Origin: Thermostichus sp. DRC_bins_24
GTDB taxonomy: Bacteria; Cyanobacteriota; Cyanobacteriia; Thermostichales; Thermostichaceae
Direction of reading: 5' to 3'
NCBI GenBank assembly: GCA_039794845.1
Contig: JAUQVK010000026.1
Span: 1-32,569, forward strand
DNA: 32,569 bases
Notes under the pieces: generated by a model
What the model was told of the DNA's origin: nothing
Seen by the model: the letters and a program-made list of their open reading frames with translations, nothing else
The model's database searches: none
Shown: positions 7,704 through 25,814 of the stretch, in pieces
Layout of the letters: each line of letters starts with the position of its first letter
How positions within the stretch are numbered: the stretch's first letter is position 1
Made by a program: the position numbers and the translations under genes

Positions 7704-8993
7704 ATGAGTGTTTGTGGCTACCTCTACACTCCCTCTCATGCGGCTTTAGATAGCCAGGAGTTGGCATGGCTCAAAGCTCAAGGGGCCGATCCGGTTCTGC
7801 AGGATTGGGGATCCCGAGCCTATTTGGAAGACCTGTTTCAGCGCATTACGGCTGGGTCGGTGCAGGAGGTGCTGCTCTTGCGTCTGTCGGATCTGGGGGA
7901 TCGGGTGGATGAAATTCACGAGCGGCTGCTGCAAATTCAACAGGCTGGGATCCGACTCAGCTTGGTCAATGCATCCGGGGTACAAACACCCGCCAACCCT
8001 GAAGCCTGGATCCCACTTCTGGCAGAAATTCCCCATCAGTTGCAAAGCCGTCGCCTCTCTCGCCGCCAGGCCCAGAACCGTCTGGCCGGCAAGCCTCCCC
8101 CCGGCCCCGCTCCCTTTGGGTACCGCCGCGAAGGGGATCGCTATGTGCCGGATCGCAAGCAGGCCAGCATCGTTGAGGCTTTTTTCCAGCACTTTTTGCT
8201 GTACGGATCCCTGCGACAGGCGGTGCGCTTCATCGAGGAAAAACACCACAAACACATTTCGGTTGCCACCGGACGCAACTGGCTGCTCAACCCCGTCTAC
8301 CGAGGTGATTTGGCTTACACCGACGGCACCACCCTGCGAGATACCCACCCGGCCCTGCTCAGCCGCACCGAAGCTGCCCAGATTGATCGCTGGCTCAAAC
8401 GCAACCAAGGGATCCCCCGCCGTAGCGCCAGTGCCCCCCGTTCTTTGGCGGGCTTAGGGCGATGCCGTTCTTGTGGGAGCCCCCTGCGCATTGTGCAAAC
8501 CACCCCCCGTCGGGGCAGCAAGAAAAGCACCCCATCCTATCTGTATCTGCGCTGCCAAACCTGTCGCTACAGCCTTAACTACTCCGAGGTTTTGGAGGAG
8601 GTGATCCGCCAAGTTTGTGAGCAACTGCCCCAACGCGCCCAACAACTGGATGAAGATCCGCTCGCTCAGGCCCGCCAAGGGATCCAAGCGCAAATTCAGG
8701 CCAACACAGGCATCCTCCATCAGCTCGAAGCCCTGGAGGAATCCGGGTTGATGGACGAGCCCTCGCTGGCCCAGCGCCGCTACCAACTGCGAGCCGAAAA
8801 TGCCTTCTTGGCCCAAAAGCTGGAGCAACTGCCCCCCACCAATTTGTCCCAGATCGCCCAAACCCTTTCCATTCAGCCCTTCTGGCAGGATCTCACCGAA
8901 ACCGAACGGCGCGCCTACCTGCGAGAATTTCTGCGCAGCATCGAGGTGGATGCCAACGGCCAGGTACGGGTGGTTTTTGTATTTGATCCCTAG
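7704..8993 (+). CDS. Large serine-recombinase-like protein (degenerate resolvase domain + recombinase + Zn ribbon + coiled coil)
   Basis: RLSDLG, G.PPPG.APFGY, WLLNPVYRG, H.ALLS, CRSC...CQTC and a C-terminal coiled coil. The N-terminus reads GYLYTPS rather than YxRxS. Confidence 0.85.
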   Translation: MSVCGYLYTPSHAALDSQELAWLKAQGADPVLQDWGSRAYLEDLFQRITAGSVQEVLLLRLSDLGDRVDEIHERLLQIQQAGIRLSLVNASGVQTPANPEAWIPLLAEIPHQLQSRRLSRRQAQNRLAGKPPPGPAPFGYRREGDRYVPDRKQASIVEAFFQHFLLYGSLRQAVRFIEEKHHKHISVATGRNWLLNPVYRGDLAYTDGTTLRDTHPALLSRTEAAQIDRWLKRNQGIPRRSASAPRSLAGLGRCRSCGSPLRIVQTTPRRGSKKSTPSYLYLRCQTCRYSLNYSEVLEEVIRQVCEQLPQRAQQLDEDPLAQARQGIQAQIQANTGILHQLEALEESGLMDEPSLAQRRYQLRAENAFLAQKLEQLPPTNLSQIAQTLSIQPFWQDLTETERRAYLREFLRSIEVDANGQVRVVFVFDP

Positions 8994-9932: not shown

Positions 9933-10111
9933 AATTAGATTTTTTAGTTAAATAAGGCTTTAAGTCGCTTGAGACCCATTCTGTAAACCTCAATTAACCC
10001 AAGAAACTCTTTTTCTCTTTGAGTCGCCTCCCTTTGTACTCCGTAACAGTTCTCAAGCAAGGGATCCCCTGCTGATAATGGCCGTTGGAAGCCCCCATTG
10101 AGGAACGCGCT

Positions 10112-10978
10112 GTGAAACTGGCAGTTTATGGAAAAGGTGGTATCGGCAAATCCACCACGAGTTGCAATATTTCGGTGGCCTTGGCCAAGCGGGGCAAAAA
10201 GGTCTTGCAGATCGGCTGCGATCCCAAGCACGACAGCACCTTTACCCTGACGGGCTTTCTCATTCCCACCATCATCGACACCCTAGAGTCCAAGGGTTAC
10301 CACTACGAGGATGTTTACGCGGAGGATGTGATCTATCCCGGCTACGGCGGTGTGGACTGTGTGGAAGCGGGTGGCCCGCCGGCGGGTGCAGGTTGTGGTG
10401 GCTATGTGGTCGGGGAAACCGTCAAGCTGCTCAAGGAACTGAACGCTTTCGATGAATACGATGTCATCCTCTTCGATGTGCTGGGGGATGTGGTGTGCGG
10501 TGGCTTTGCCGCCCCCCTCAACTACGCCGATTACTGCCTGATCGTCACCGACAATGGCTTTGATGCCCTGTTTGCCGCCAATCGCATTGCTGCCTCGGTG
10601 CGAGAAAAAGCCAAAACCCGCAAATTACGGCTGGCCGGATTGATCGGCAATCGCACCAGCAAGCGGGATCTAATCGACAAGTATGTTTCGGCAGTACCCA
10701 TGCCCGTGATCGAGGTGCTGCCCCTCATCGAAGATATTCGCGTTTCACGGGTGAAGGGTAAAACCATCTTCGAGATGGCCGAAACCGATCCCGATTTGGA
10801 ACCCGTCTGTCAGTACTACCTGAATATTGCCGATGAGCTGCTGGCGCGCCCGGAAGGGATTGTGCCCAAAGATGCCCAAGATCGAGACTTGTTTACCTTG
10901 CTCTCGGACTTTTACAACCTTCCCACTCAAAGCCCCGCCGTTCCTGCAGCGCCTGCACGGGAACCGACTCTGGTGTAA
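10112..10978 (+). CDS. chlL: Dark-operative protochlorophyllide reductase Fe protein
   Basis: [44 protein letters not shown] start at 10112 follows a GAGGA RBS. Confidence 0.97.
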
Positions 10979-11061
10979 GGGATCCCGATATTTCCAAAAT
11001 TTAAGAAACCCTGCGGAAAAGCATCTCAAACCTTATCAATTCGTAGCCACGTCTGATTTAG

Positions 11062-12141
<1,080 letters not shown>

Positions 12142-12157
12142 CAGCTAGTTAGATCTG

Positions 12158-12196
12158 AGGGAGGAGAGAAAAAGCCGAAAAGCCCCTTTCCTCCCG
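12158..12196 (+). terminator. Imperfect stem-loop between por and chlN
   Basis: GGGAGGAGAG...CCCTTTCCTCCC complementary arms. No U-tract. Confidence 0.3.
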
Positions 12197-12333
12197 AATA
12201 GATCAGCCGGATAAAGCAGGATGTTGCCAGACTCAATTTATCCATGCAAATCGTATAACCGATGTACTGTAAAATTGTTGTTCAATAGTTTCGTTGATTC
12301 CGCTTGAGATTCGATAAGACTTGCTTGCTTTAG

Positions 12334-13973
<1,640 letters not shown>

Positions 13974-14154
13974 GGCAACGGATCCCGTGGGAAAGGGCCA
14001 CTAAAGGCTGTTGCTGCTGGAAACAGGATATCAGGTCGTCTCCCAGCTGCGCAGAAGGCTGGCTGGAGTTCATTTTCTGCTGAAAATTAGGTGGAAATTA
14101 GGATTTACAATGGGGGTTCTTGTATCCTCAATAACCAGTCACTCTCGGTACACG

Positions 14155-16281
14155 ATGACGGATCCCACCGATACCCTCTGGGTTTTGGTCTGTGCTGCCT
14201 TGGTGTTCATCATGCAGCCCGGCTTCATGTGTTTGGAGTCGGGGTTAACCCGCAGTAAGAACAGCATCAACGTTGCCGCCAAGAACTTTGCCGATTTTGC
14301 CCTGTCCTCCGGGCTGTTTTGGCTGGTGGGATTTGGCCTCATGTTTGGCCCCAGTTGGCTGGGGATCTTCGGGTACGGGGGGTTTGCCCTTGATCTGAAT
14401 GGGGTGGGATCCCTCGCCGCTTTTTTTCTGTTTCAGGCCATGTTCTGCGGTACGGCCACCACGATTGTCTCTGGGGCGGTGGCGGAGCGGGTGCGCTTCG
14501 GGGCTTATGGCCTGATCAGCTGTTTGATCTCCGGGTTGATCTACCCCATCTACGGCCATTGGGTTTGGCATGGGCTGGATCAGGGGCAGGCCACCGGTTG
14601 GTTGGGGCAGCTGGGGTTTGTTGATTTTGCCGGTTCCACCGTGGTCCACAGCGTGGGGGGCTGGGTGGCCTTGGCGGGGCTGATGGTGATTGGGCCGCGG
14701 GCCGGTCGTTTCGATGCCCAGGGTCGCCCGAAAAAGCTGCTCGGTTCCAGTTTGCCCCTGTCGGTCTTGGGGGGGATGTTGCTCTGGTTTGGCTGGTTTG
14801 GCTTTAACGGCGGCAGTGCCTTGGGGCTGGGGCCGGAGGTGCCGCGCATTCTCACCAACACCCTCATGGGTGGAGTCAGCGGGTTGATCGGCGGACTGGG
14901 GATTGCTTTGCTCTACTTGCGGCGAGCGGAAGTGGACTGGATGATCAATGGCTGTTTGGCCGGGTTGGTGGCGATTACGGCGGGCTGTCATTTGGTGTCG
15001 ACGGCTGAGGCAGTCTGGATTGGGGCAATCGGCGCTTCGGTGGCCATTTGGGTCAGCCTGGGCATGGAGCGTTGGCGGCTGGATGATGCGGTGGGGGCGG
15101 TGCCGGTGCATCTGGGGGCAGGGGCCTGGGGGACTCTGGCGGTGGCCTTCTTTGGGGATCCCGACCAATTGCCCTTGCCGGTGTTGCCGCAGTTGGGGAT
15201 CCAGCTGTTGGGGGTAGCGGCGGCGGGGATCTGGGCCTTTGGGCTGGCCTACGCGGTTTTGCGGGGGACGGATCCCTTTTGGCCGTTGCGGGTTACCTCG
15301 GAGGCAGAAGAGCTGGGCCTGAACATTGTCGAACATGGGGCGAAAACGGAAGCCTACGACCTGATCCAGGTGATGACGGCCCATTCCCATCGGCGGGATT
15401 TGCACCGGCGGGTGCCGGTGGAGCCCTTCTCAGAGCTGGGGTATGTGGGATCCCGTTACAACCAGGTGATGGATGCCCTGGCCTCGGCCCAAGAAGAAAT
15501 TCAACAACTCAACCTCAAGCTCGAGGCGGAAAACCAGCGCATGGGATCCGAACTGGAACTGACCCGACGGCTGCAACAGTTGATCCTGCCCAAGGATCGG
15601 GAATTGCAACAGATCCCGGGGTTGGATATTGCGGGCTTTATGGAACCGGCCACGGAAGTGGGGGGCGACTACTACGATGTGTTGGAGCACAACGGCCTGG
15701 TGCGCATTGGTATCGGCGATGTGACGGGGCATGGCCTGGAGAGCGGCATGTTGATGCTCATGGCCCAAACGGCGGTGCGCACCCTAGCCATCCAGCAAGA
15801 ACGGGATCCGGGGCGGGTGCTGGAGATCCTCAACCAGGTGATCTACGAAAATGCCCAGCGCATGAACTCTGACCGAAACATGACCCTGATGTTGCTCGAT
15901 TACCACGATGGCATTCTGCGCTTCAGCGGCCAGCATGAGCAGATCATCGTCGTGCGCAAAGAGGGATCCATCGAACGGGTGGATACCCTCGACCTGGGTT
16001 TTCCCATTGGGTTGGAGGCGGATATCCGCCAATTTATCGCCCAGGCGGAAGTTCACCTTTCCCCGGGGGATGTGGTGGTGCTCTACACCGATGGCATTAC
16101 CGAAGCCGAGAACGAATCCCGAGAGCTGTTCGGGTTGGAGCGGTTGTGTCAAGTGGTGCAACACTATTGCCAAGCTTCTGCACGCCAGATCTGCAAAGCG
16201 ATCATCACGGAAGTACGGCAGTTTATTCAGGGGAACCCGATTTTTGATGATCTCACCCTCGTGGTGATCAAGAAAACCTAA
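14155..16281 (+). CDS. amt: Ammonium transporter fused to a HAMP-like/coiled-coil linker and a PP2C/SpoIIE-type phosphatase
   Basis: Amt part: MQPGF..LESG, FQAMF, SGAVAER, DFAGSTVVH, GWFGFNGGS, DDAVGAVPVH. PP2C part: VGGDYYD, GDVTGHG, YTDG, DDLT. Start is probably ATG 14155; the ORF is open from 14011. Confidence 0.93.
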   Translation: MTDPTDTLWVLVCAALVFIMQPGFMCLESGLTRSKNSINVAAKNFADFALSSGLFWLVGFGLMFGPSWLGIFGYGGFALDLNGVGSLAAFFLFQAMFCGTATTIVSGAVAERVRFGAYGLISCLISGLIYPIYGHWVWHGLDQGQATGWLGQLGFVDFAGSTVVHSVGGWVALAGLMVIGPRAGRFDAQGRPKKLLGSSLPLSVLGGMLLWFGWFGFNGGSALGLGPEVPRILTNTLMGGVSGLIGGLGIALLYLRRAEVDWMINGCLAGLVAITAGCHLVSTAEAVWIGAIGASVAIWVSLGMERWRLDDAVGAVPVHLGAGAWGTLAVAFFGDPDQLPLPVLPQLGIQLLGVAAAGIWAFGLAYAVLRGTDPFWPLRVTSEAEELGLNIVEHGAKTEAYDLIQVMTAHSHRRDLHRRVPVEPFSELGYVGSRYNQVMDALASAQEEIQQLNLKLEAENQRMGSELELTRRLQQLILPKDRELQQIPGLDIAGFMEPATEVGGDYYDVLEHNGLVRIGIGDVTGHGLESGMLMLMAQTAVRTLAIQQERDPGRVLEILNQVIYENAQRMNSDRNMTLMLLDYHDGILRFSGQHEQIIVVRKEGSIERVDTLDLGFPIGLEADIRQFIAQAEVHLSPGDVVVLYTDGITEAENESRELFGLERLCQVVQHYCQASARQICKAIITEVRQFIQGNPIFDDLTLVVIKKT

Positions 16282-16298: not shown

Positions 16299-17609
16299 TC
16301 AAAGGGCACCCAGCACCTGTCGCGCCGCCGCCAAGGTTTGCTCCACGTCGGCCTCGGTGTGGGCCAAGGAGGTAAAGCCCGCCTCGAATTGGGAGGGCGC
16401 CAGATACACCCCCTGCTCTAACATGCCACGATGGAAACGGGCAAACTTCTGCAGATCAGATGCCTTGGCGTCTTCGTAGTTGTGGACGGGCCCGGCGGTG
16501 AAAAAGAAGCCGAACATACCCGGCAGATAACCTCCGCAGGCGGCATGGCCGGTTTCTTGGGCCACCCGTAGCATGCCTGTGGCGAGCTTTTCCGTGATCC
16601 GCTCCAGATACTCGTAGGTGCCGGGGCGACGCAAAATGTCCAGCGTGTGGATCCCTGCGGTCATGGCCAAGGGGTTTCCAGAAAGAGTGCCTGCCTGATA
16701 CATCGGCCCCGCCGGAGCCACCATTTCCATAATCTCCCGCCGACCGCCATAGGCCCCCACGGGCAAGCCGCCCCCGATCACCTTGCCTAGGGTGGTTAAA
16801 TCGGGGATGACACCGAACTTGGCCTGCACACCGCCGTAGCTGATGCGAAAGCCCGTCATCACTTCGTCGAACACCAGCAGGGCACCGTATTGTTGGGTCA
16901 GATCCCGCAGCCCCTGCAAAAAGCCCGGCTGTGGGGGAATAAACCCGGCATTGCCCACCACCGGCTCCAGAATCACCCCGGCGATGGAGTCGGGATGTTG
17001 CTCAAACAGGGCCTTGACCGCCTCCAGATCGTTGTAGGGTGCGGTGAGGGTGGCGCTGGTGGCCGCCTTGGGAACTCCGGGGGAATCCGGCAACCCCAGA
17101 GTGGCCACCCCGGATCCCGCTTTCACCAAAAACATATCCGCATGGCCGTGGTAGCAGCCCTCGAATTTGATCACCTTTTCCCGCCCGGTGTAGGCCCGCA
17201 TCAGGCGCAGCACCGCCATACAGGCTTCGGTGCCGGAATTGACGAAGCGCACCATCTCCACGCTGGGCACCGCCTCGATCACCCGTTCCGCCAGTTGATT
17301 TTCTAGGGCACAGGGGGCGCCAAAACTGGTGCCTTTGCTCAGGGCCTTTTGCAGCGCTTCGATCACCTCGGGGTGGGCATGACCGACGATCGCGGGCCCC
17401 CAACTGCCGATGTAGTCGATGTATTGGTTGCCATCCACATCCCAGGCGTAGGCTCCGGAGACACGGTCGAACACAACGGGATCCCCGCCCACCGACTTAA
17501 AGGCCCGCACGGGAGAACTAACCCCTCCCGGCATCAGCCCTTGTGCCTGGGCAAAAATCTGTTTGGAGCGGGTGGTGTTAAAAGAGGTGGAGTGGAGAGT
17601 GCCGGTCAT
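16299..17609 (-). CDS. hemL: Glutamate-1-semialdehyde 2,1-aminomutase
   Basis: [59 protein letters not shown]. Confidence 0.98.
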
Positions 17610-17723: not shown

Positions 17724-20600
17724 TTAGCGGCCGGGCAGCAACGCTTCCACCTGGGCGAGCAGTTCATACTCTAGGCAGGGCTTGGTGAGGTAAGCCTCTG
17801 CCCCCAGTCGCATGGCCAGATGGCGGTGCTTTTGGCTGCCACGAGAGGTGAGCATCACCACAGGGATCCCGGCCAAATGGGGGGCTTTACGCCGCTGGTT
17901 CAAAAACTCAAAGCCGTTCATGCGGGGCATTTCCACATCACAGAGGATCAGGTTAACAGGCTGTTGATGTTCCAGATGGGTGAGGGCCTCCTGTCCATCG
18001 CGGGCTTGAGCGACTTCGTAGCCGGCGCGTTCCAACTGGCGGGCCAAGGTTTGCCGCATCATGGCCGAATCGTCGATCACCAACAGGCGCAGCTTTTGAT
18101 GGGGGATAACCGGGCAACGGAGTGTACCTTCTGCGGGCATGGCATTCCCCAGCTGCCCCAAGGCCCAGCCATCCAAAATCGGGATCAACATTCCCGTTGC
18201 CCCTACTGTGCAGCCAAAAAAGTAAGCCGGAGCCACCAGCTCGGATCCCAGCGGCTTAACGGCCAGCTCCTGCTGTGCCACCAACCGATCCACAGCAATG
18301 GCGACGGCGGTTCCATCCCGTTCGCAGATCAGCACCGTCTGGATGTCTTCTGGTGTGAGGGTTCCCTGATGCAGTTGCCCCGCCGCCACTCCGTAGCGCA
18401 ACAGGTGTAGCAACGGTTGGATGCGTAAGGATTGCCCCTGCCACTCCAGACTGGGGGTGTTGAGCGGCACCTGCAGAATCTCGGCGACGGTATCCACCGG
18501 AAGGGCATAGGTGAATCGCCCGGCTTCACAAAGGATCAGTTGTGTGAGGCCCAGCGTCAACGGGATCCGCAGCGTGAAGGTGGTGCCGACTCCGGGGGTG
18601 GACTGTACCGAAACCGTGCCGCGAACCGCTGCCAATTCTGCCCGGACACTATCCAGGCCAACCCCGCGCCCCGACACCTCGCTCACTTGCCGAGCGGTGG
18701 AAAACCCTGGCGCAAAAATAAAATTGAGAAGGGCCGTATCTTCGAGGGTGTTGAGATCGCCTGGTTTGCACAGCCCTTGCTCCACTGCCCGCTTGCCGAC
18801 TGCCGCTCGGTCAATGCCGCGCCCATCATCCCGCACCTGGATCACCACCTGACCCCCCTGGCGAAAGGCAGAAATCAGCAGAACTCCCGTTCTGGCTTTG
18901 CCTCGCAACTGACGTTCTTGGGGAGGTTCTAGGCCATGATCCACCGCATTGCGCACCAGATGCACCAGCGGCGTGTAGAGCTGATCCAGCACCGGCTTGT
19001 CCACCAGCACCTCGGATCCCTCCAGTTGCACCTGAACCTGTTTGCGCTGGGCCAAGGCCAGATCCCGCACCACCCTCGGCAGCCGCTCCAACACCCGACT
19101 GATGGGTAACATGCGGGCGGAAACCAGCTCTTCGTTCAGTTCTGTCAGCCCTTTGGCATGCAGGCGTAGGGTTTGTTCGGATTGGCCCAGATAGAGGTTG
19201 AGGTCTTCTAGGGTTTCTTCAATTTGGGCGCTTTCTTCCAGCACCTCTTGAATGATGAGATTCAGACTGCTGTAGCGATCCAGCTCCAGGGCATCAAAGT
19301 TGGTATGCCACTCAGGGGTGCTCTCGAGCACGGGATCCTTTGCCGTCGGGGTTAGGGGAGTGGCGACCCCAGACACAATCAATTGGTCGGCAATGCGCTC
19401 CAGTTGGGCACTGTGGTTGCGCAGGGTTTTCAGTCGCCGCTTCAGGCTGGCTGCTGTCTGCCGCACCAGATCCTGCTGCATTTGCAACTGGTTGCGGGAA
19501 ATGGAGAGTTCCCCCACTTGAGCGCTGATTTTATCCAGCCGCTGCAGCTCCACCCGTACGGTCACATCTGGGGTGGGGGCGGTGGGGGGAAGCCTTGCTT
19601 CGATGGGATCCCTAGCCGCCACTGCGACGGGCTCCAGGATCGTTGTCGGGGTAGGCTCCGGTTCTGGGCTGAGATCGAGCTCTTCTAGGCTGCTGACCAG
19701 GGTGGTAAAGAGGTCCGGGTCTGGGGAGAGATCTGGGCCGGTGGCGCTAGAGGGGGATCCCCATTCAAAGTCGGGCTCTAGGGGTTCGACTTCAAGGGTG
19801 GGTGGGGTTGGGGTGGCTGGGGGTGCGCCTATCCAGGCGGCCAGGTCTGGGAACGCCTCTGGGGGTGGGGGATCCCCTCCTGACACAATCGTCTCTTGGG
19901 CTTGGCGCCAGGCAGAGAGAGCCCATTCTCCCAGAGAGATAACCGCTTCGGGTTGTGCCTCCAGAGCCTGCAAAACCCCATTGGAAAGGGCCGTAAAGTT
20001 GGGTAACTCCAACATCTGGCCCAAATCCGCGAAAGCTTGTGCCTGGGTTTTCAGGTGTTGGGTGAGAGCGGAGGGATCCCCTTGTGCCAGGATGTTGGCC
20101 AGCTCTTCTAGGCTGCGGGCCACATCAATCTCGAACAGGGATTGCCGCAGGTCGATGCCGAAATCGGAGGTGCTGGGCAACACAAAGTCATCCACCTCCA
20201 CATGGGCCAGTTGGGCTTCCAGATGGGCGTAGATCGCTTCGGTTTGAGCAGGGGTGGCGAAGATGCCGCTTCGGATCCCGGCCTGGATCGTATCCCGCAG
20301 ACAATCGCTGGCCGCCAGAAAACTGGACTCCAATTCCGGCGTGATCTGCAGACTGTCCGAGTGGAGCGCCTTGACCGCACTTTCCAGGCGATGGGCCAAC
20401 TCCTTAACCGAATCCAACCCCAGGCTGGCGGCATTTCCCTTGAGGGAGTGGGTGGTGCGCATCAAGGTGTGAATATCGGAGGGGTTACGCTCCTGGGAAA
20501 GGGTCAGCAGAATCGACTCGATGGTTTGCAGCAGTTCTGGGGCTTCCTGCACAAACAGCTGGTAAGCGTAATCCCGAATGTCGGCATCGATCAGAGACAT
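17724..20600 (-). CDS. CheA-like hybrid kinase (Hpt-HATPase-CheW-REC; PilL/PixL type)
   Basis: Hpt MRTTHSLKG; HLVRNAVDHG, DDGRGID, GFST, SGRGVGL; CheW domain; C-terminal REC (IDDS, CDVEMP, YLTKP). Confidence 0.95.
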   Translation of the reverse strand: MSLIDADIRDYAYQLFVQEAPELLQTIESILLTLSQERNPSDIHTLMRTTHSLKGNAASLGLDSVKELAHRLESAVKALHSDSLQITPELESSFLAASDCLRDTIQAGIRSGIFATPAQTEAIYAHLEAQLAHVEVDDFVLPSTSDFGIDLRQSLFEIDVARSLEELANILAQGDPSALTQHLKTQAQAFADLGQMLELPNFTALSNGVLQALEAQPEAVISLGEWALSAWRQAQETIVSGGDPPPPEAFPDLAAWIGAPPATPTPPTLEVEPLEPDFEWGSPSSATGPDLSPDPDLFTTLVSSLEELDLSPEPEPTPTTILEPVAVAARDPIEARLPPTAPTPDVTVRVELQRLDKISAQVGELSISRNQLQMQQDLVRQTAASLKRRLKTLRNHSAQLERIADQLIVSGVATPLTPTAKDPVLESTPEWHTNFDALELDRYSSLNLIIQEVLEESAQIEETLEDLNLYLGQSEQTLRLHAKGLTELNEELVSARMLPISRVLERLPRVVRDLALAQRKQVQVQLEGSEVLVDKPVLDQLYTPLVHLVRNAVDHGLEPPQERQLRGKARTGVLLISAFRQGGQVVIQVRDDGRGIDRAAVGKRAVEQGLCKPGDLNTLEDTALLNFIFAPGFSTARQVSEVSGRGVGLDSVRAELAAVRGTVSVQSTPGVGTTFTLRIPLTLGLTQLILCEAGRFTYALPVDTVAEILQVPLNTPSLEWQGQSLRIQPLLHLLRYGVAAGQLHQGTLTPEDIQTVLICERDGTAVAIAVDRLVAQQELAVKPLGSELVAPAYFFGCTVGATGMLIPILDGWALGQLGNAMPAEGTLRCPVIPHQKLRLLVIDDSAMMRQTLARQLERAGYEVAQARDGQEALTHLEHQQPVNLILCDVEMPRMNGFEFLNQRRKAPHLAGIPVVMLTSRGSQKHRHLAMRLGAEAYLTKPCLEYELLAQVEALLPGR

Positions 20601-20606
20601 TGCAGA

Positions 20607-22418
20607 TCACTCAACCTTGAATTGTTCGACACTCTGGAGCAGCGATTGGGCGATGGTTTGCAACTCTTTGATGGCTTGCAGCACTTTGTTGGCCTCTGTA
20701 GAGGTGCGGTTCGACACCAGCGTCACCTCTGCCATCGCCCTAGTCATGGCCGAAGACTCCTGTGCTTGTCGCTCAGCTGCCTCCGCAATTTGATTCACCA
20801 ACCGGTTGACTTCTGCACCGGCAGCGGCGATTTTTTCCAAACTGAGGCGAGTGGCTTCCACCAAGTTGGTGCCCTCTACCACCTGCTCAGTACCGGCTTC
20901 CATGGCGGTGATCGCTTCATGGGTACCGGACTGGATCTCCGCCACCAACAGTTCGATCTCACTGGTGGCTTCTGCCGACTGTTTCGCCAACGATCGCACC
21001 TCTTCTGCCACCACCGCAAACCCTCGTCCTGCTTCTCCAGCTCGAGAAGCCTCGATGGAAGCATTGAAAGCCAGTAGGTTGGTTTGGTTGGCAAAGCCGC
21101 TGATCAACTGCACCACCCGGGCGATCTTTTGGGAGGATTCCCCCAAGCGCTTGACCTTTTTGGCGGTTTCGGAAACCGATTCGCGGATCGTGGCAAAGCC
21201 CTCCACCGTGCGGTTCATCGCCATTTGGCCGGAACCGATGGCCATTTCCGTTTGCGCCACAATGCGGGTGGCCTCTTGGGCGTTTTTGGCCACTCCCTGA
21301 ACGGAGGTTTCGATTTCCTTTAACCGTTCCAAAGCCCCCTGAATCATCTTGGCTTCCGCAACCGCCCCCTGGGCCAGTCGCTTCACCGATATATTGCTCA
21401 TCTCAGTGGCCTGACCCACCTTTTGTGCGGCCTCCAGCACTTGGATAACCAGCTTGCGCAGGTTGAAGATGGTGGCGTTGTAGGAGTCGGCGATGGTGCC
21501 CACCTGGTCTTCGGTGACGGCGGCCCGTACCGTCAAATCTCCACGGCTCACCGGCTGCACCTGCATCAGCAACTCCATTACCCGCCGCTCCAGAAACTCC
21601 TTGGCTTGACGAGCTTCTTCGTTGCTCATCTCCATTTGAGTTGCCAGCCGCCGATCCACAAAGGAGGTCATCAACACAAAGCCCAAGATCACCAAGGTCG
21701 CCACCCCAATGGCGATCGCCATCCCCGCCAAAAAGCCATCTCCGGTGGGATCCGCTTCCGCAAGGGCTGGGTTCAGTACCAAAAATTGGGCCGCAGCCAT
21801 ACCTGTGTAGTGCATCCCAGCAATGGCAATTCCCATGACGATGGCACTGCCGATTTTCAGAAAAAAGCCTCTTTGGGAAAATTGACCCCGCAGTTGAAAG
21901 GCGATCCACAAAGCGGCCAGCGAGGCACCGGTGGCAATCACTATCGAGAGGAAAAACAGCAGCGGATCGTATCGGAGTTGGGCCTCCATTTCCATGGCGG
22001 CCATGCCCGTGTAGTGCATCACCGCGATCCCCAAGCCCATGAGGATGGCGCCCCCCAACAACTGCATAAAACCGACGGTTTGCCGGCTCACCAGCACCAG
22101 AGCAATCGCGGAGGACAAAATGGCAAAGACCATCGACAGGCCAACAATGAAGACGTTGTAGTTCACGTCGATGGGTAGGCTAAAGGCCAACATGCCCACA
22201 AAGTGCATGGACCAAATGCCCAGGCCCATGGCGATGGCCCCACCCAATAGCCAAAAGGACTTAAGGCGGCCCACCGTAGCTGCCACCCGACCGGCCAAAT
22301 CCAAAGCGGTGTAGGAGGCGATCATCGCCACAAAGACGGAGAGTGAAACCAGCCAGCCATCGTAGGTGCTGTTGAGGAGGTACAGGGATCCGGATCCCGA
22401 AACAAAGAAATCGCCCAT
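20607..22418 (-). CDS. Methyl-accepting chemotaxis protein with an N-terminal MHYT membrane sensor domain
   Basis: [15 protein letters not shown] and GMHYTGM in hydrophobic helices; HAMP-like [16 protein letters not shown]; signalling tip [31 protein letters not shown]. Confidence 0.93.
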
Positions 22419-22522
22419 CGCTGATTCTGTCCTTGCTGAACGTGGAATGCATCAAGTAAGTGGGATTGACTCGTGAAAGAGGGGAAGCAGTTCAAACAAT
22501 TGACAAACTGGATCGAGGTGGC

Positions 22523-23053
22523 CTACGAGGAAGCTGGAGGCTTCAGAGCACGTAAAATCGACAGACCATCCAAGATCCACAAGGATCCGCCTGCAGCTGA
22601 TCTGGGCCAAAGGGAACGAATGTAGGGCTTGAGAACATCGGGTATGGGTTCGCCGGAGGCTGGAGCAATTTCCGTGGAGCTGACCTCCAGGATGTCTTCT
22701 AGGTGCTCAATCACCAGCCCTAACCCTCGGGGTTGCCCCTCAAAGATCAGCTCCAGAGTGACGACCGTAGCGTGGGTTTTGGTTTCCCAAGCTCCTCCTG
22801 GGTTGATTTTGAAAAGGGTGGCCAAATCCACCAGCCACAACAACTTTCCTTGGAACCGACAAACCCCCAAAACCGCATCGGGCATATCGGGAATGGGCAG
22901 AATGGTCTCTTTGGGGATCTGCAAGACCTGGCGGGTTTGTCGAACAGGGATCCCGAGAGAGAGCGCCTCCCCAACCCGCACGCCCAGCAGTTCGATCCCC
23001 TGTTGGGGGGCCGCAGAGGGGGCTACTGTCGCTCGCAGGTGGGGAGATGCCAC
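22523..23053 (-). CDS. CheW-like coupling protein (PilI/PixI type)
   Basis: ILPIPDMPDAVLGV..FQGKLLWLVDL and GLVIE, plus its position in the operon. Confidence 0.88.
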   Translation of the reverse strand: MASPHLRATVAPSAAPQQGIELLGVRVGEALSLGIPVRQTRQVLQIPKETILPIPDMPDAVLGVCRFQGKLLWLVDLATLFKINPGGAWETKTHATVVTLELIFEGQPRGLGLVIEHLEDILEVSSTEIAPASGEPIPDVLKPYIRSLWPRSAAGGSLWILDGLSILRALKPPASS

Positions 23054-23055
23054 GA

Positions 23056-23442
23056 TTATTTCCCTCGGCTGACGGGTTGTTTTCTGAGCAGATCCTCCAC
23101 CGTTTGGGTGAGCTCCGCTTGGTTGACGGGCTTAGCCAGGTAAGCATCTGCCCCTTGGGCACGCCCCCAGAACTTATCGGTATCGCTACCTTTGGTGGAG
23201 CAAATCACAATCGGAACGTCTCGGGTGGCTTTTTCTGCTTTCAGTTCCCGGCACAGTTCAAACCCACTCAGGCCGGGCAACACGACATCAATGACCATCA
23301 AATCGGGCAATTTTTGACGGATGACTTCTAGGGCTTCTTCGGCACTCTTGGTTTTCAGGACGAAGTGCCCTGCCCGTTGCAAACATTCACTGATGATGGC
23401 AGATTCTACAGGAGAGTCTTCGACGATGAGAATGGTGTACAT
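23056..23442 (-). CDS. CheY-like single-domain response regulator (PilH/PixH type)
   Basis: ILIVEDS, DVVLPGLSGFELCR, CSTK..DKFWG..QGADAYLAKP. Confidence 0.93.
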   Translation of the reverse strand: MYTILIVEDSPVESAIISECLQRAGHFVLKTKSAEEALEVIRQKLPDLMVIDVVLPGLSGFELCRELKAEKATRDVPIVICSTKGSDTDKFWGRAQGADAYLAKPVNQAELTQTVEDLLRKQPVSRGK

Positions 23443-23511
23443 GGTTGCCTAGGTTGAAATGATCATGAAAGGACAGATTTTGTTCGGTTTTGAGCCAAAA
23501 ACCTTCTCATT

Positions 23512-24723
23512 TTAAGCAGAATGCTTGACCGATAGGTATGTCTGAATCGTTTGCAGAAGCTCCTCCTTTTGTATGGGTTTGTTCATGAAATGGGTGGATC
23601 CCACCAGTTTGGCCCGCATTCGGTCGATAATGCCATCGTTACCGGTGAGGATGATGATCGGGGTTTCTCGGAAGCGCGGTACTTTGCGCAGTTGGGTGCA
23701 AATTTCGTAGCCATTGCTGGAGGGCATCACCAAATCCAAAAAGATCAGATCCGGTGGTTGGCTCAACACTTGAGCGATGGCTCGCAAGGGATCCTGAATA
23801 CCCAGAAAACGGTACCCTTCGGGGATGAGGATGCGCTTGATCGTTTCACAGACAATTTCGCTGTCGTCAATACAGGCGATAAGGGGTTTCGTGGCCAAGT
23901 CCTCGCCGGGGGGATCCTCAACCCATGGGGATTGCACCTCGGGTACCGGTTGCATGGAGACAATGCCCTGACGCAACAATGGCATCAACAACCGTCCGAT
24001 TTCAGCGGGCTTTTTGCCGAGTGTGACAGCCAGTTCGCGCAAGGTTTGTTGGCTCTGGAAAATCTTTTGCCATTGGACAAAGATGGGCTTCGACACCTGC
24101 CTTTCCAAGACTTCCGGCAAATCTAGGTGTGGCCTTTGATCCAAATAGGCCGGTTTTAAGCTGAGGGTTTGCCAAAGAGCCAATTCGCTGTGGATGCCAT
24201 CCAACAACTCCGAGATACTGAGAATGGTTAGACGTGGAGTCAGGGATCCCGTTTGGTTTAGGTGAAACTGCAGATGGTTGGCACGGGCAATATCAAACAA
24301 GACTTCTGTGCAAAGGTTACGGATGACCGTTTGGGTTTGTTCTCGATTGAGGATCCCTCGCTTAGCCAGCAAACAGATGAATTGATAATGAGGGCAAGAG
24401 GCACCTTCTGGGAATAACTCCCTTAGCATTTCAATCGAAACACTTTCCAGTTCTTGCTCTAGGGAAGGACAAAACCGCTTCAGATGGTGTTGCCAGCGAC
24501 GAACGGAGTGATGCCCTCCAGCCGCGTACAGGATGCGACCAAGATACAGGTAGAGTGTCCAAACTTGGTCGGGAGACTCAATAGTGAGGATGCCAGAGAG
24601 TTGTTCCTGCTTGATTTTCAGCAGCTCTTTCACCATATCGTCGCCACTTAGCCCTTCCTTGGTCGGTTGCTCTGGGGAAGTCAGAAGGGGTCGATGCTCG
24701 TCTGCCATGACTAAGGTTTTCAT
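23512..24723 (-). CDS. PatA-family response regulator (PATAN/DUF4388 + REC; PixG/PilG type)
   Basis: SGILTI..W.LYLYLGRILYA.G N-terminal PATAN region; C-terminal IACIDDS, PDLIFLDLVMP, GIIDRMRAKLVG. Confidence 0.92.
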   Translation of the reverse strand: MKTLVMADEHRPLLTSPEQPTKEGLSGDDMVKELLKIKQEQLSGILTIESPDQVWTLYLYLGRILYAAGGHHSVRRWQHHLKRFCPSLEQELESVSIEMLRELFPEGASCPHYQFICLLAKRGILNREQTQTVIRNLCTEVLFDIARANHLQFHLNQTGSLTPRLTILSISELLDGIHSELALWQTLSLKPAYLDQRPHLDLPEVLERQVSKPIFVQWQKIFQSQQTLRELAVTLGKKPAEIGRLLMPLLRQGIVSMQPVPEVQSPWVEDPPGEDLATKPLIACIDDSEIVCETIKRILIPEGYRFLGIQDPLRAIAQVLSQPPDLIFLDLVMPSSNGYEICTQLRKVPRFRETPIIILTGNDGIIDRMRAKLVGSTHFMNKPIQKEELLQTIQTYLSVKHSA

Positions 24724-25156
24724 AAATAAGCGATAAGGTTGTGAAATGGGCTGTAGCTGTAGAGCGCAAACCTTACATCGGTGCCCATTCGCAGATGTGC
24801 AGTAGGCACCCTCAAACCGTCGGTTTCCGTGTCGAGTCGCCGACGCTTCAGTTGTGATTTATACTGTTGCCTCAACGCTTCAATTCTAGAGAAAACCTGG
24901 GAAAATGAAAGACTAATTGTGATGAATTCTTGACAATTCTCTTGCTTGGTATTGTTTCTTCAACGAGGTTCAGTGTATTTTCGTAGATGCTAACCCCTAT
25001 TTCTGAAAGTTTCTGCCCTGCTCTGGATTTTCTCGCAACCGCTGCTGGACAAGGGACAGAGGTTTGTGGGACGCCTCGCACAACAACCTGCCGGAGCAAC
25101 GGCTCCGTCCTGCGGGGTGTAACGCTGGACTAGTTTGTACTGGGAATTCCCAGATA

Positions 25157-25283
25157 TAGTCATTGCAATTGAGGCTGAAGCAGATCCCTCACCCCCTTCG
25201 CGCAGCGTGGCACCGGCCGTAGCCCCTCTTCTAGAGCGGGAAAGGGGAGCCAAAAAGTGTATCGTTTTTATTTGGAGTGACCA
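25157..25283. repeat. MITE-like/dispersed repeat family B, copy 1
   Basis: Imperfect TIRs TAGTCATTGCAATT ... ATTTGGAGTGACCA with an internal CCCCTCT..AGGGG hairpin. The left half matches 30933-30994 and the right half matches 26672-26733. Confidence 0.65.
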
Positions 25284-25814
25284 CAGTTGAAGTGGTTTCT
25301 ATCTCAAACCTAAGGCAAACTTGGAGCTTTGGGAGTGAATAACCTAGGCTTAGCCGTACCAGATTGACCGCACAAACAAAGGCTTTTCCCCGGACAAAGG
25401 TTGGAAAAGACCGTATCGGTGTTATTCAACTATTCAACCAAAGTGTATTCCCCTCAGTTCCCCGCCCGCACTAACCAATGATCGGGTTTAGAAATCAATA
25501 TTCGGATCCACAGATCTCGGCGAGCAGATTGTGCAGCAAAGTCCTTACCGCCCTTGCTGCTGTGTGCATCCTTGCCAGTTGGCGCCAGGACGTGTTTGTG
25601 TCTCTTTTGCCAGCCCAGATCATCTCCTAAGTGACCACTTACCGTAGTCTGGGATTTAGGACCGGTCAGCCATTGAGTCTGAGGCAGGGTGAGCGAACGG
25701 TACCGTCTAACCTTGATGCTCTAACCTTGATGCGTGTCATCAACCACTGCCACGAAGCTAACCTGCAAAGTTTGGATCCAGCCCTCTTGCTCCTATCTCC
25801 TGAAGATTCTCGGT

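Follow-up and report, generated by a model that had tools for sequence, protein, structure and literature searches.

Between positions 17724 and 24723, the minus strand of contig JAUQVK010000026.1 (assembly GCA_039794845.1, Thermostichus sp. DRC_bins_24) encodes an intact patA-cheY-cheW-mcp-cheA operon, five co-oriented open reading frames (ORFs) identified from an ORF list and Pfam, whose receptor carries an MHYT domain as its sensor. Positions 1 to 32,569 of this contig are referred to below as the window, and its genome as G000. The intergenic gaps are 69, 2, 104 and 6 bases in the order patA to cheA. An earlier note on this DNA had described the gene order and the lack of cheR and cheB, and both observations hold: the five ORFs are intact, and neither CheR (PF01739) nor CheB (PF01339) found a match in the 99.9% complete genome, while each was matched in 6 of 14 control genomes. 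The interpretation developed below is that the operon may encode a copper-dependent O2/CO sensor that gates type IV pilus activity or polarity by gas level, a tentative reading held at somewhat less than even confidence.

The patA product contains DUF4388 (51 bits, cut-off 25), which we take to be the PATAN domain, followed by a REC domain, and this PatA-type regulator is the predicted output to the pilus motor. The single-domain CheY, 96% identical to its counterparts in two other genomes of the genus (G010 and G004), is predicted to serve as a phosphate sink or antagonist. In CheA, the Pfam layout is Hpt, H-kinase_dim, HATPase_c, CheW and REC, and the N, G1, F and G2 boxes are all present. 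The coordinates of these features are collected in Table 1.

Table 1. Operon genes, receptor segments and the downstream anchor gene in the window.
Feature	Position	Strand	Basis
patA-type response regulator, 403 residues, DUF4388+REC (Asp330)	23512..24723	-	Pfam; acceptor Asp motif
Single-domain CheY, 128 residues, Asp52	23056..23442	-	Pfam REC; motif
CheW adaptor, 176 residues, GTG start	22523..23053	-	Pfam CheW, 62 bits
MHYT-HAMP-like-MCP chemoreceptor, 603 residues	20607..22418	-	Pfam MHYT, 166 bits; MCPsignal, 140 bits
MHYT sensor domain, residues about 15-258, seven predicted helices	21645..22376	-	Pfam; AlphaFold model; conservation; dN/dS
HAMP-like segment, residues about 276-325, between helix 7 and signalling domain	21444..21593	-	Weak Pfam HAMP; PDB 3zx6 alignment
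MCP signalling hairpin with its tip at Glu462 and 141 residues between tip and end	20610..21455	-	PDB alignment; motif scan
Hybrid CheA, 958 residues: Hpt (His51), dimerisation, ATPase, CheW, C-terminal REC (Asp888)	17724..20600	-	Pfam; motifs
hemL (glutamate-1-semialdehyde aminomutase)	16299..17609	-	NCBIfam hemL above cut-off; synteny anchor

The union of an MHYT domain with a methyl-accepting chemotaxis protein (MCP) signalling domain, which the earlier note had read from the sequence, is borne out by the domain search. MHYT (PF03707) scores well above its cut-off of 21 bits in three stretches, and the motifs MHFVG, MHYTG and MHYTG begin at residues 71, 134 and 202. A Pfam scan of the whole receptor found no GAF, PAS or Cache domain, its length being filled by MHYT, linker and MCP. 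An AlphaFold model built on 146 aligned rows (predicted local distance difference test score, pLDDT, 93.5; predicted template modelling score 0.88) places helices at residues 21-47, 51-78, 89-111, 117-140, 152-176, 182-209 and 228-278, the seventh of which extends into the cytoplasm. In this predicted model, Met71-His72, Met134-His135 and Met202-His203 lie near the C-terminal ends of helices 2, 4 and 6. Compared with the alignment-based model, one made from the single sequence was poor (pLDDT 53.6). A Foldseek search with the sensor model gave no match at E 0.001 and a wide aligner gave a best Z of 6.4, which demonstrates neither a new fold nor its absence; a sequence search for a solved MHYT relative found none.

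Between helix 7 and the signalling domain, the earlier note had placed a HAMP-like joint. This part of the proposal has some support from alignment, in that the receptor aligns from residue 277 to a HAMP-MCP chimera (PDB 3zx6), but not from the Pfam score, which is given below among the points of doubt. The segment also aligns to the matching segment of related cyanobacterial MCPs, an observation that is not independent. The length of the hairpin arm presumably assigns it to the 40-heptad class, and the methylation-site consensus pattern used found no match in it.

Conservation of the sensor was assessed over the same 146 rows, which had been selected for likeness to the window MHYT domain. 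His135 and His203 occur in every row and His72 in 145, and all six Met/His residues are found together in 136 rows, the window protein among them. By a simple counting method, the ratio of nonsynonymous to synonymous substitution rates (dN/dS) against G010 is 0.041 for the sensor and 0.040 for the signalling domain, within a range of 0.03-0.23 for the five operon genes and beside 0.052 for hemL; against the sister-genus genome G017, the sensor gives 0.086, with synonymous divergence (dS 1.8) near saturation. The MHYT sensor is thus maintained under strong purifying selection.

The range of the operon is narrow. MHYT was found in 3 of 23 family genomes, always in a receptor of the window type and always in an intact operon: two of the 12 genus genomes (G000 and G010) and one of a sister genus (G017). 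In G004 the start of cheW is fused to the end of cheA, the equivalent of window positions 18015-22973 being gone, and in G008 only the last 330 bases of cheA remain. These deletions are likely separate, because each remnant keeps DNA that is missing in the other. In the remaining eight genus genomes, hemL has no operon next to it, and no stretch of DNA matches the operon. A hemL tree of 17 rows unites seven operon-less genomes in one clade (100/99) and G010, G004, G008 and G003 in another. Since an intact copy is also present in G017, the simplest reading of these sequences is that the operon was present in the genus ancestor and was then repeatedly lost, although transfer between lineages is also possible. 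Genomes with the operon or a remnant measure 3.3-3.7 Mb and those without 2.2-3.0 Mb, a comparison among kin that are not independent. The remnant patA of G004 (L063:6420-7720) is split by a frameshift, and nifH is split in that genome too; both may be assembly errors.

The two different deletions in close relatives would also fit a relic on its way to being lost, without current function in its own genome. This is nonetheless highly improbable, given that all five frames are open, the catalytic residues are present, dN/dS is low across the five genes, and the sequence cluster of the receptor holds six members at 90% identity or more.

To place the receptor among its relatives, its signalling domain was searched against 1.84 billion representatives, with GAF and MHYT assigned by local profiles. 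Of the best 150 matches, 133 share at least 47% identity over 250 residues; GAF is present in 106 of these 133 close relatives, and MHYT only in the window receptor's own cluster. An atlas search gave MCP clusters only. Related operons that were inspected carry dCache, GAF or unnamed periplasmic sensors. The receptor trees, the 64-row version of which was a quick tree, place the window MCP in a GAF-rich clade, and a CheA tree puts the kinase in the same broad clade. From these sequence comparisons, the MHYT receptor looks like a sensor swap in a GAF-rich clade. Searches of the PDB with GAF receptors drawn from two clades did not tell those clades apart, and no named PixJ or PtxD sequence is among the tree rows. 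A sister relationship to receptors of the same family, seen with FastTree, fell away in likelihood trees. A recent foreign origin of the sensor likewise finds no support in GC content at third codon positions (sensor 0.72, signalling domain 0.66, neighbours 0.56-0.74). The signalling domains of MHYT receptors that also carry GAF and PAS do not form a clade with that of the window (approximately unbiased test, p 1.8e-7; 31 rows picked from 183). For the MHYT domain itself, shared ancestry with the MHYT of Nostocales receptors (p 0.48) or with stand-alone MHYT proteins (p 0.32) was rejected in neither case, and the window and Nostocales receptor domains may share an ancestor.

The proposed mechanism takes its first step from CoxC. 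CoxC senses CO only if the MHYT domain and Cu2+ are present, O2 competes and reverses the response, and the motifs lie at the ends of transmembrane (TM) helices 2, 4 and 6, at the outer membrane face (PMC11347149). By analogy, the Met/His residues of the window receptor would hold copper near the outer membrane face, and O2 and CO would compete there. Judging from chemoreceptor architecture, gas binding would shift helix 7, then the HAMP-like segment and finally the hairpin tip, where the change would alter CheA autophosphorylation through CheW. If Synechocystis Tax1 is a guide, CheA would phosphorylate PatA and CheY; phospho-PatA would bind PilB/PilC and bias where pili extend, and CheY would drain phosphate. 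PATAN regulators have been found to bind PilB1/PilC, with CheY as a sink (PMC11181946), and ethylene modulates cyanobacterial phototaxis, a precedent for gas input (PMC6682694). In the absence of methylation, the pathway would follow the momentary gas level and so change motility, or reverse the sign of phototaxis, as O2 in the mat moves between high and low. The best guess at the natural signal would be O2, followed by CO, a product of heme oxygenase; G000 encodes a heme oxygenase, three PilB/PilT-family ATPases and nifH. The earlier note had named O2, NO or CO as ligands, and O2 and CO find a footing in the copper of CoxC (PMC11347149), but NO rests on NbdA/MucR, and later work on NbdA is unfavourable, as described below.

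An MHYT domain could instead answer to something other than a gas, such as copper or another metal, nitrate or nitrite, ethylene, membrane energisation or surface contact, or could mainly anchor or localise the array, the output still being pilus control. The second motif of MucR has been tied to nitrate and the MHYT domain of CdgB to membrane localisation (PMC11347149). Overproduced NbdA variants with MHYT impair twitching whatever their enzyme activity, NbdA was pulled down with PilB, and its signal is described as unknown (bioRxiv 10.64898/2026.03.20.713172). Conversely, every Met/His of the proposed copper site is kept under strong selection, and the single directly tested MHYT protein answers CO and O2 through copper (PMC11347149), so that a non-gas signal or an anchoring role appears unlikely.

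The pathway was described in the earlier note as one of non-light taxis. The proposed independence of light agrees with the lack of a photoreceptor domain in the receptor; taxis in the strict sense, in which cells would sense a mat gradient of O2, CO or NO, either along the cell body or by comparison over time, and follow it independently of light, is improbable. Such behaviour would suit a dedicated, complete pathway with its own kinase and regulators, and spatial gradient sensing based on pili has been reported for Pseudomonas. Moreover, mats have steep gradients, and diel migration within them is attributed to light, pH or oxygen (PMC11804611). However, gas-gated motility is likelier than gradient taxis, because no CheR or CheB was found and the methylation consensus went unmatched, leaving no known memory for temporal sensing. 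Missing adaptation in such systems has been explained by directional light sensing (PMC11181946), and the operon is missing from most members of the genus.

A gas might also be sensed with a non-directional result, namely aggregation, polysaccharide secretion, pilus assembly or gene expression. Cyanobacterial chemotaxis-like systems do govern pilus assembly and aggregation as well (PMC12288463), and the stimuli and roles of tax2 and tax3 are given as uncharacterised (PMC5812497). Yet the sole output domain in the operon is of the PATAN type, and the tested Synechocystis PATAN regulators described all act at the pilus motor (PMC11181946), which makes a non-motility output distinctly improbable.

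Several observations weigh against the preferred reading of a copper-dependent gas sensor that gates pili. Within the literature covered, a gas response has been demonstrated for no MHYT protein other than CoxC, a 2022 review calls MHYT activity unknown (PMC8846402), and an nbdA mutant still disperses with NO, so that the role of NbdA in NO sensing was not upheld (bioRxiv 10.64898/2026.03.20.713172). The large subunit of CO dehydrogenase (CoxL) falls below its cut-off in G000, at 333 of 991 bits, so CO is not an obvious substrate, and its use as one was rejected. Within the receptor, the HAMP match (PF00672) is sub-threshold, at 14 bits and E 0.06 against a cut-off of 25, and we infer pilus control here from other clades. 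As for distribution, ten of the 12 genus genomes are without an intact operon. Finally, nifH is above cut-off in six of the 12, three of which have no trace of the operon; nifH therefore does not track the operon, and a link to nitrogen fixation was rejected.

This distribution also qualifies the suggestion, made in the earlier note, that the pathway serves vertical migration in hot-spring mats. The setting fits, a 95% identical PatA being named Thermostichus by its source, but with ten of 12 genomes lacking it in intact form, the operon cannot be how the genus in general migrates in mats.

MHYT domains also occur beside other taxis pathways. Among the best 120 relatives of receptor residues 1-330, 80 carry an MCP domain, 66 of them with GAF and 14 without. 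The GAF-less MHYT-MCP proteins P0073, P0075, P0079-P0081, P0087, P0088, P0233, P0044 and P0070 are metagenomic and have distant signalling domains (27-32% identity in the three measured). Across the phylum, MHYT was found in 41 of 401 genomes, and the 29 MHYT loci inspected comprise two MCP fusions, two stand-alone genes beside taxis genes and 25 loci without MCP. In two of the loci (L068 and L074, of genomes G217 and G377), an MHYT histidine kinase gene is broken at the same place; it is whole in the relatives G245 and G271.

In one family, f19, a stand-alone MHYT gene is present in 9 of 20 genomes and stands directly after patA in eight of the nine; the same nine genomes hold the top scores for one receptor orthologue. 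The genes after patA in f19 tax operons encode 245-248 residues (L095:8474-9220, L097:9369-10112, L098:9107-9850 and L292-L295), and a stand-alone MHYT in G032 (L099:9540-10280) follows a GAF-MCP gene. All stand-alone MHYTs checked keep the three histidines. From these arrangements, it is possible that a stand-alone MHYT and its neighbouring receptor make up a split sensor-transducer pair, in which the MHYT would signal via a separate two-helix receptor as sensory rhodopsin does via its transducer. A more far-reaching proposal is that MHYT was recruited to cyanobacterial taxis in three arrangements, alone as a receptor's sensor, stacked on GAF-PAS in orphan receptors, and stand-alone in tax operons, with the window receptor being a copper gas receptor wired to the pilus array for light-independent movement guided by O2 or CO. 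In this full form, the proposal is rather doubtful.

Two further complete chemosensory systems are encoded in G000, on contigs C25 (GAF) and C95 (TPR-HAMP). The C25 receptor (L201:4838-7126) is the only GAF-bearing receptor found in this genome, and because its GAF has no cysteine, it probably cannot attach bilin. The C95 locus, with a TPR-HAMP-MCP and a long CheA, forms a separate clade (100/100) that excludes the window receptor and kinase, and we take it to be of the Hmp/Tax3 type. On contig C12, a cheA fragment at the contig end (L203:5519-7771) is 72% identical to the kinase of a three-GAF system in G004; the G000 assembly yielded neither its N-terminal part nor an accompanying receptor or patA.

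Upstream of the operon, an AT-rich block at window positions 24790-24960 is conserved among G000, G010 and G004 and in part in G017, and is likely a promoter region. A promoter scan gave 1 site where 3.6 were expected, no more than chance, and the upstream alignment yielded no regulator motif. A single RNA run aligned to the window gave only stray conserved pieces, with no bearing on expression. Further upstream (25155-25290) lies a repeat of about 135 bases with 58 BLAST matches in G000, itself included, which resembles a miniature inverted-repeat transposable element or a repetitive extragenic palindromic element; no match to it was listed in the 11 other genus genomes.

Downstream, hemL begins 114 bases from the operon and is adjacent also in G010, G004 and G008, but not in G017. 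With chlL-like, short-chain reductase and chlN-like genes at 10085-13758, hemL (16299-17609) forms a tetrapyrrole cluster, the short-chain reductase presumably being a protochlorophyllide reductase. The hemL-chlN adjacency recurs in several genus genomes without the operon. A functional tie of the operon to hemL or to the chlL-por-chlN cluster was considered and found unsupported, the G017 operon having different neighbours. Elsewhere in the window, positions 14011-16281 encode an ammonium transporter fused to a SpoIIE/PP2C phosphatase domain, possibly an ammonium-sensing phosphatase, and positions 7704-8993 a 429-residue ORF with a serine-recombinase-type Recombinase domain match (PF07508).

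The earlier note knew of no characterised example of this architecture. A literature search likewise found no characterised MHYT chemoreceptor, most subscription journals being outside its coverage, but the pairing itself is already on record: a chemoreceptor census holds 36 MHYT entries, counted per repeat, among 72,480 sensor domains, or 0.05%, and the MHYT proteins among the entries listed are four, all MHYT-GAF-PAS-MCP, though others may exist (PMC8547431). The supplements of PMC7390727 contain no MHYT. As far as was found in the literature covered, MHYT-MCP proteins are therefore catalogued but unstudied, and an operon with MHYT as its only sensor is not described there.

Nearly all that is understood of pilus chemosensory systems in cyanobacteria concerns receptors that see light; for the non-light systems, the signals are stated as unknown (PMC12288463, PMC5812497), and the literature search named no cyanobacterial O2 receptor for motility. 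The present locus combines a single-sensor receptor with a dedicated kinase and regulators; it also provides three histidines as mutation targets and natural deletion relatives in the same genus, so that steering of mat cyanobacteria by O2 or CO can be tested directly. For the MHYT domain, with its one demonstrated ligand case, the locus would add a thermophilic example with a kinase read-out, although its narrow range limits its ecological weight.

Compared with known systems, the operon shows those features of cyanobacterial PATAN-type chemosensory systems and of the MHYT family that could be tested, and lacks the GAF feature of the Pix/Ptx photosensory systems. SynEtr1/UirS of Synechocystis resembles the proposed receptor as a membrane gas receptor that modulates phototaxis, but is a classical histidine kinase with ethylene-binding and photoreceptor domains and contains neither MHYT nor MCP. 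NbdA and MucR of Pseudomonas aeruginosa (MHYT-GGDEF-EAL) share the triple-motif MHYT domain, and NbdA is linked to type IV pili; unlike chemoreceptors, however, their output is cyclic di-GMP. CoxC of Afipia carboxidovorans (MHYT-LytTR), compared here by its published description, likewise builds its MHYT from seven helices, the three motifs standing at the ends of TM helices 2, 4 and 6 (PMC11347149). CoxC, a one-component protein, represses CO-oxidation genes, whereas the output of the window protein is an MCP hairpin feeding CheA.

The MHYT-GAF-PAS-MCP receptors of Scytonema, Nostoc and their relatives also carry an N-terminal MHYT on a cyanobacterial MCP, their sensors being 50-60% identical to that of the window, but they add GAF and PAS and have a signalling domain of another clade. 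In the fetched flanks of all six such loci, one locus being only 3.3 kb long, cheA was absent. The closest parallels in operon architecture are Tax1 of Synechocystis PCC 6803 (PixG-PixH-PixI-PixJ-PixL) and Ptx of Nostoc punctiforme, with which the window operon shares its gene set and order, a PATAN-REC regulator with a single CheY, a hybrid CheA with a C-terminal REC, and the lack of CheR and CheB. Unlike Tax1 and Ptx, whose receptors carry bilin-binding GAF domains, the window receptor has no GAF and bears MHYT alone.

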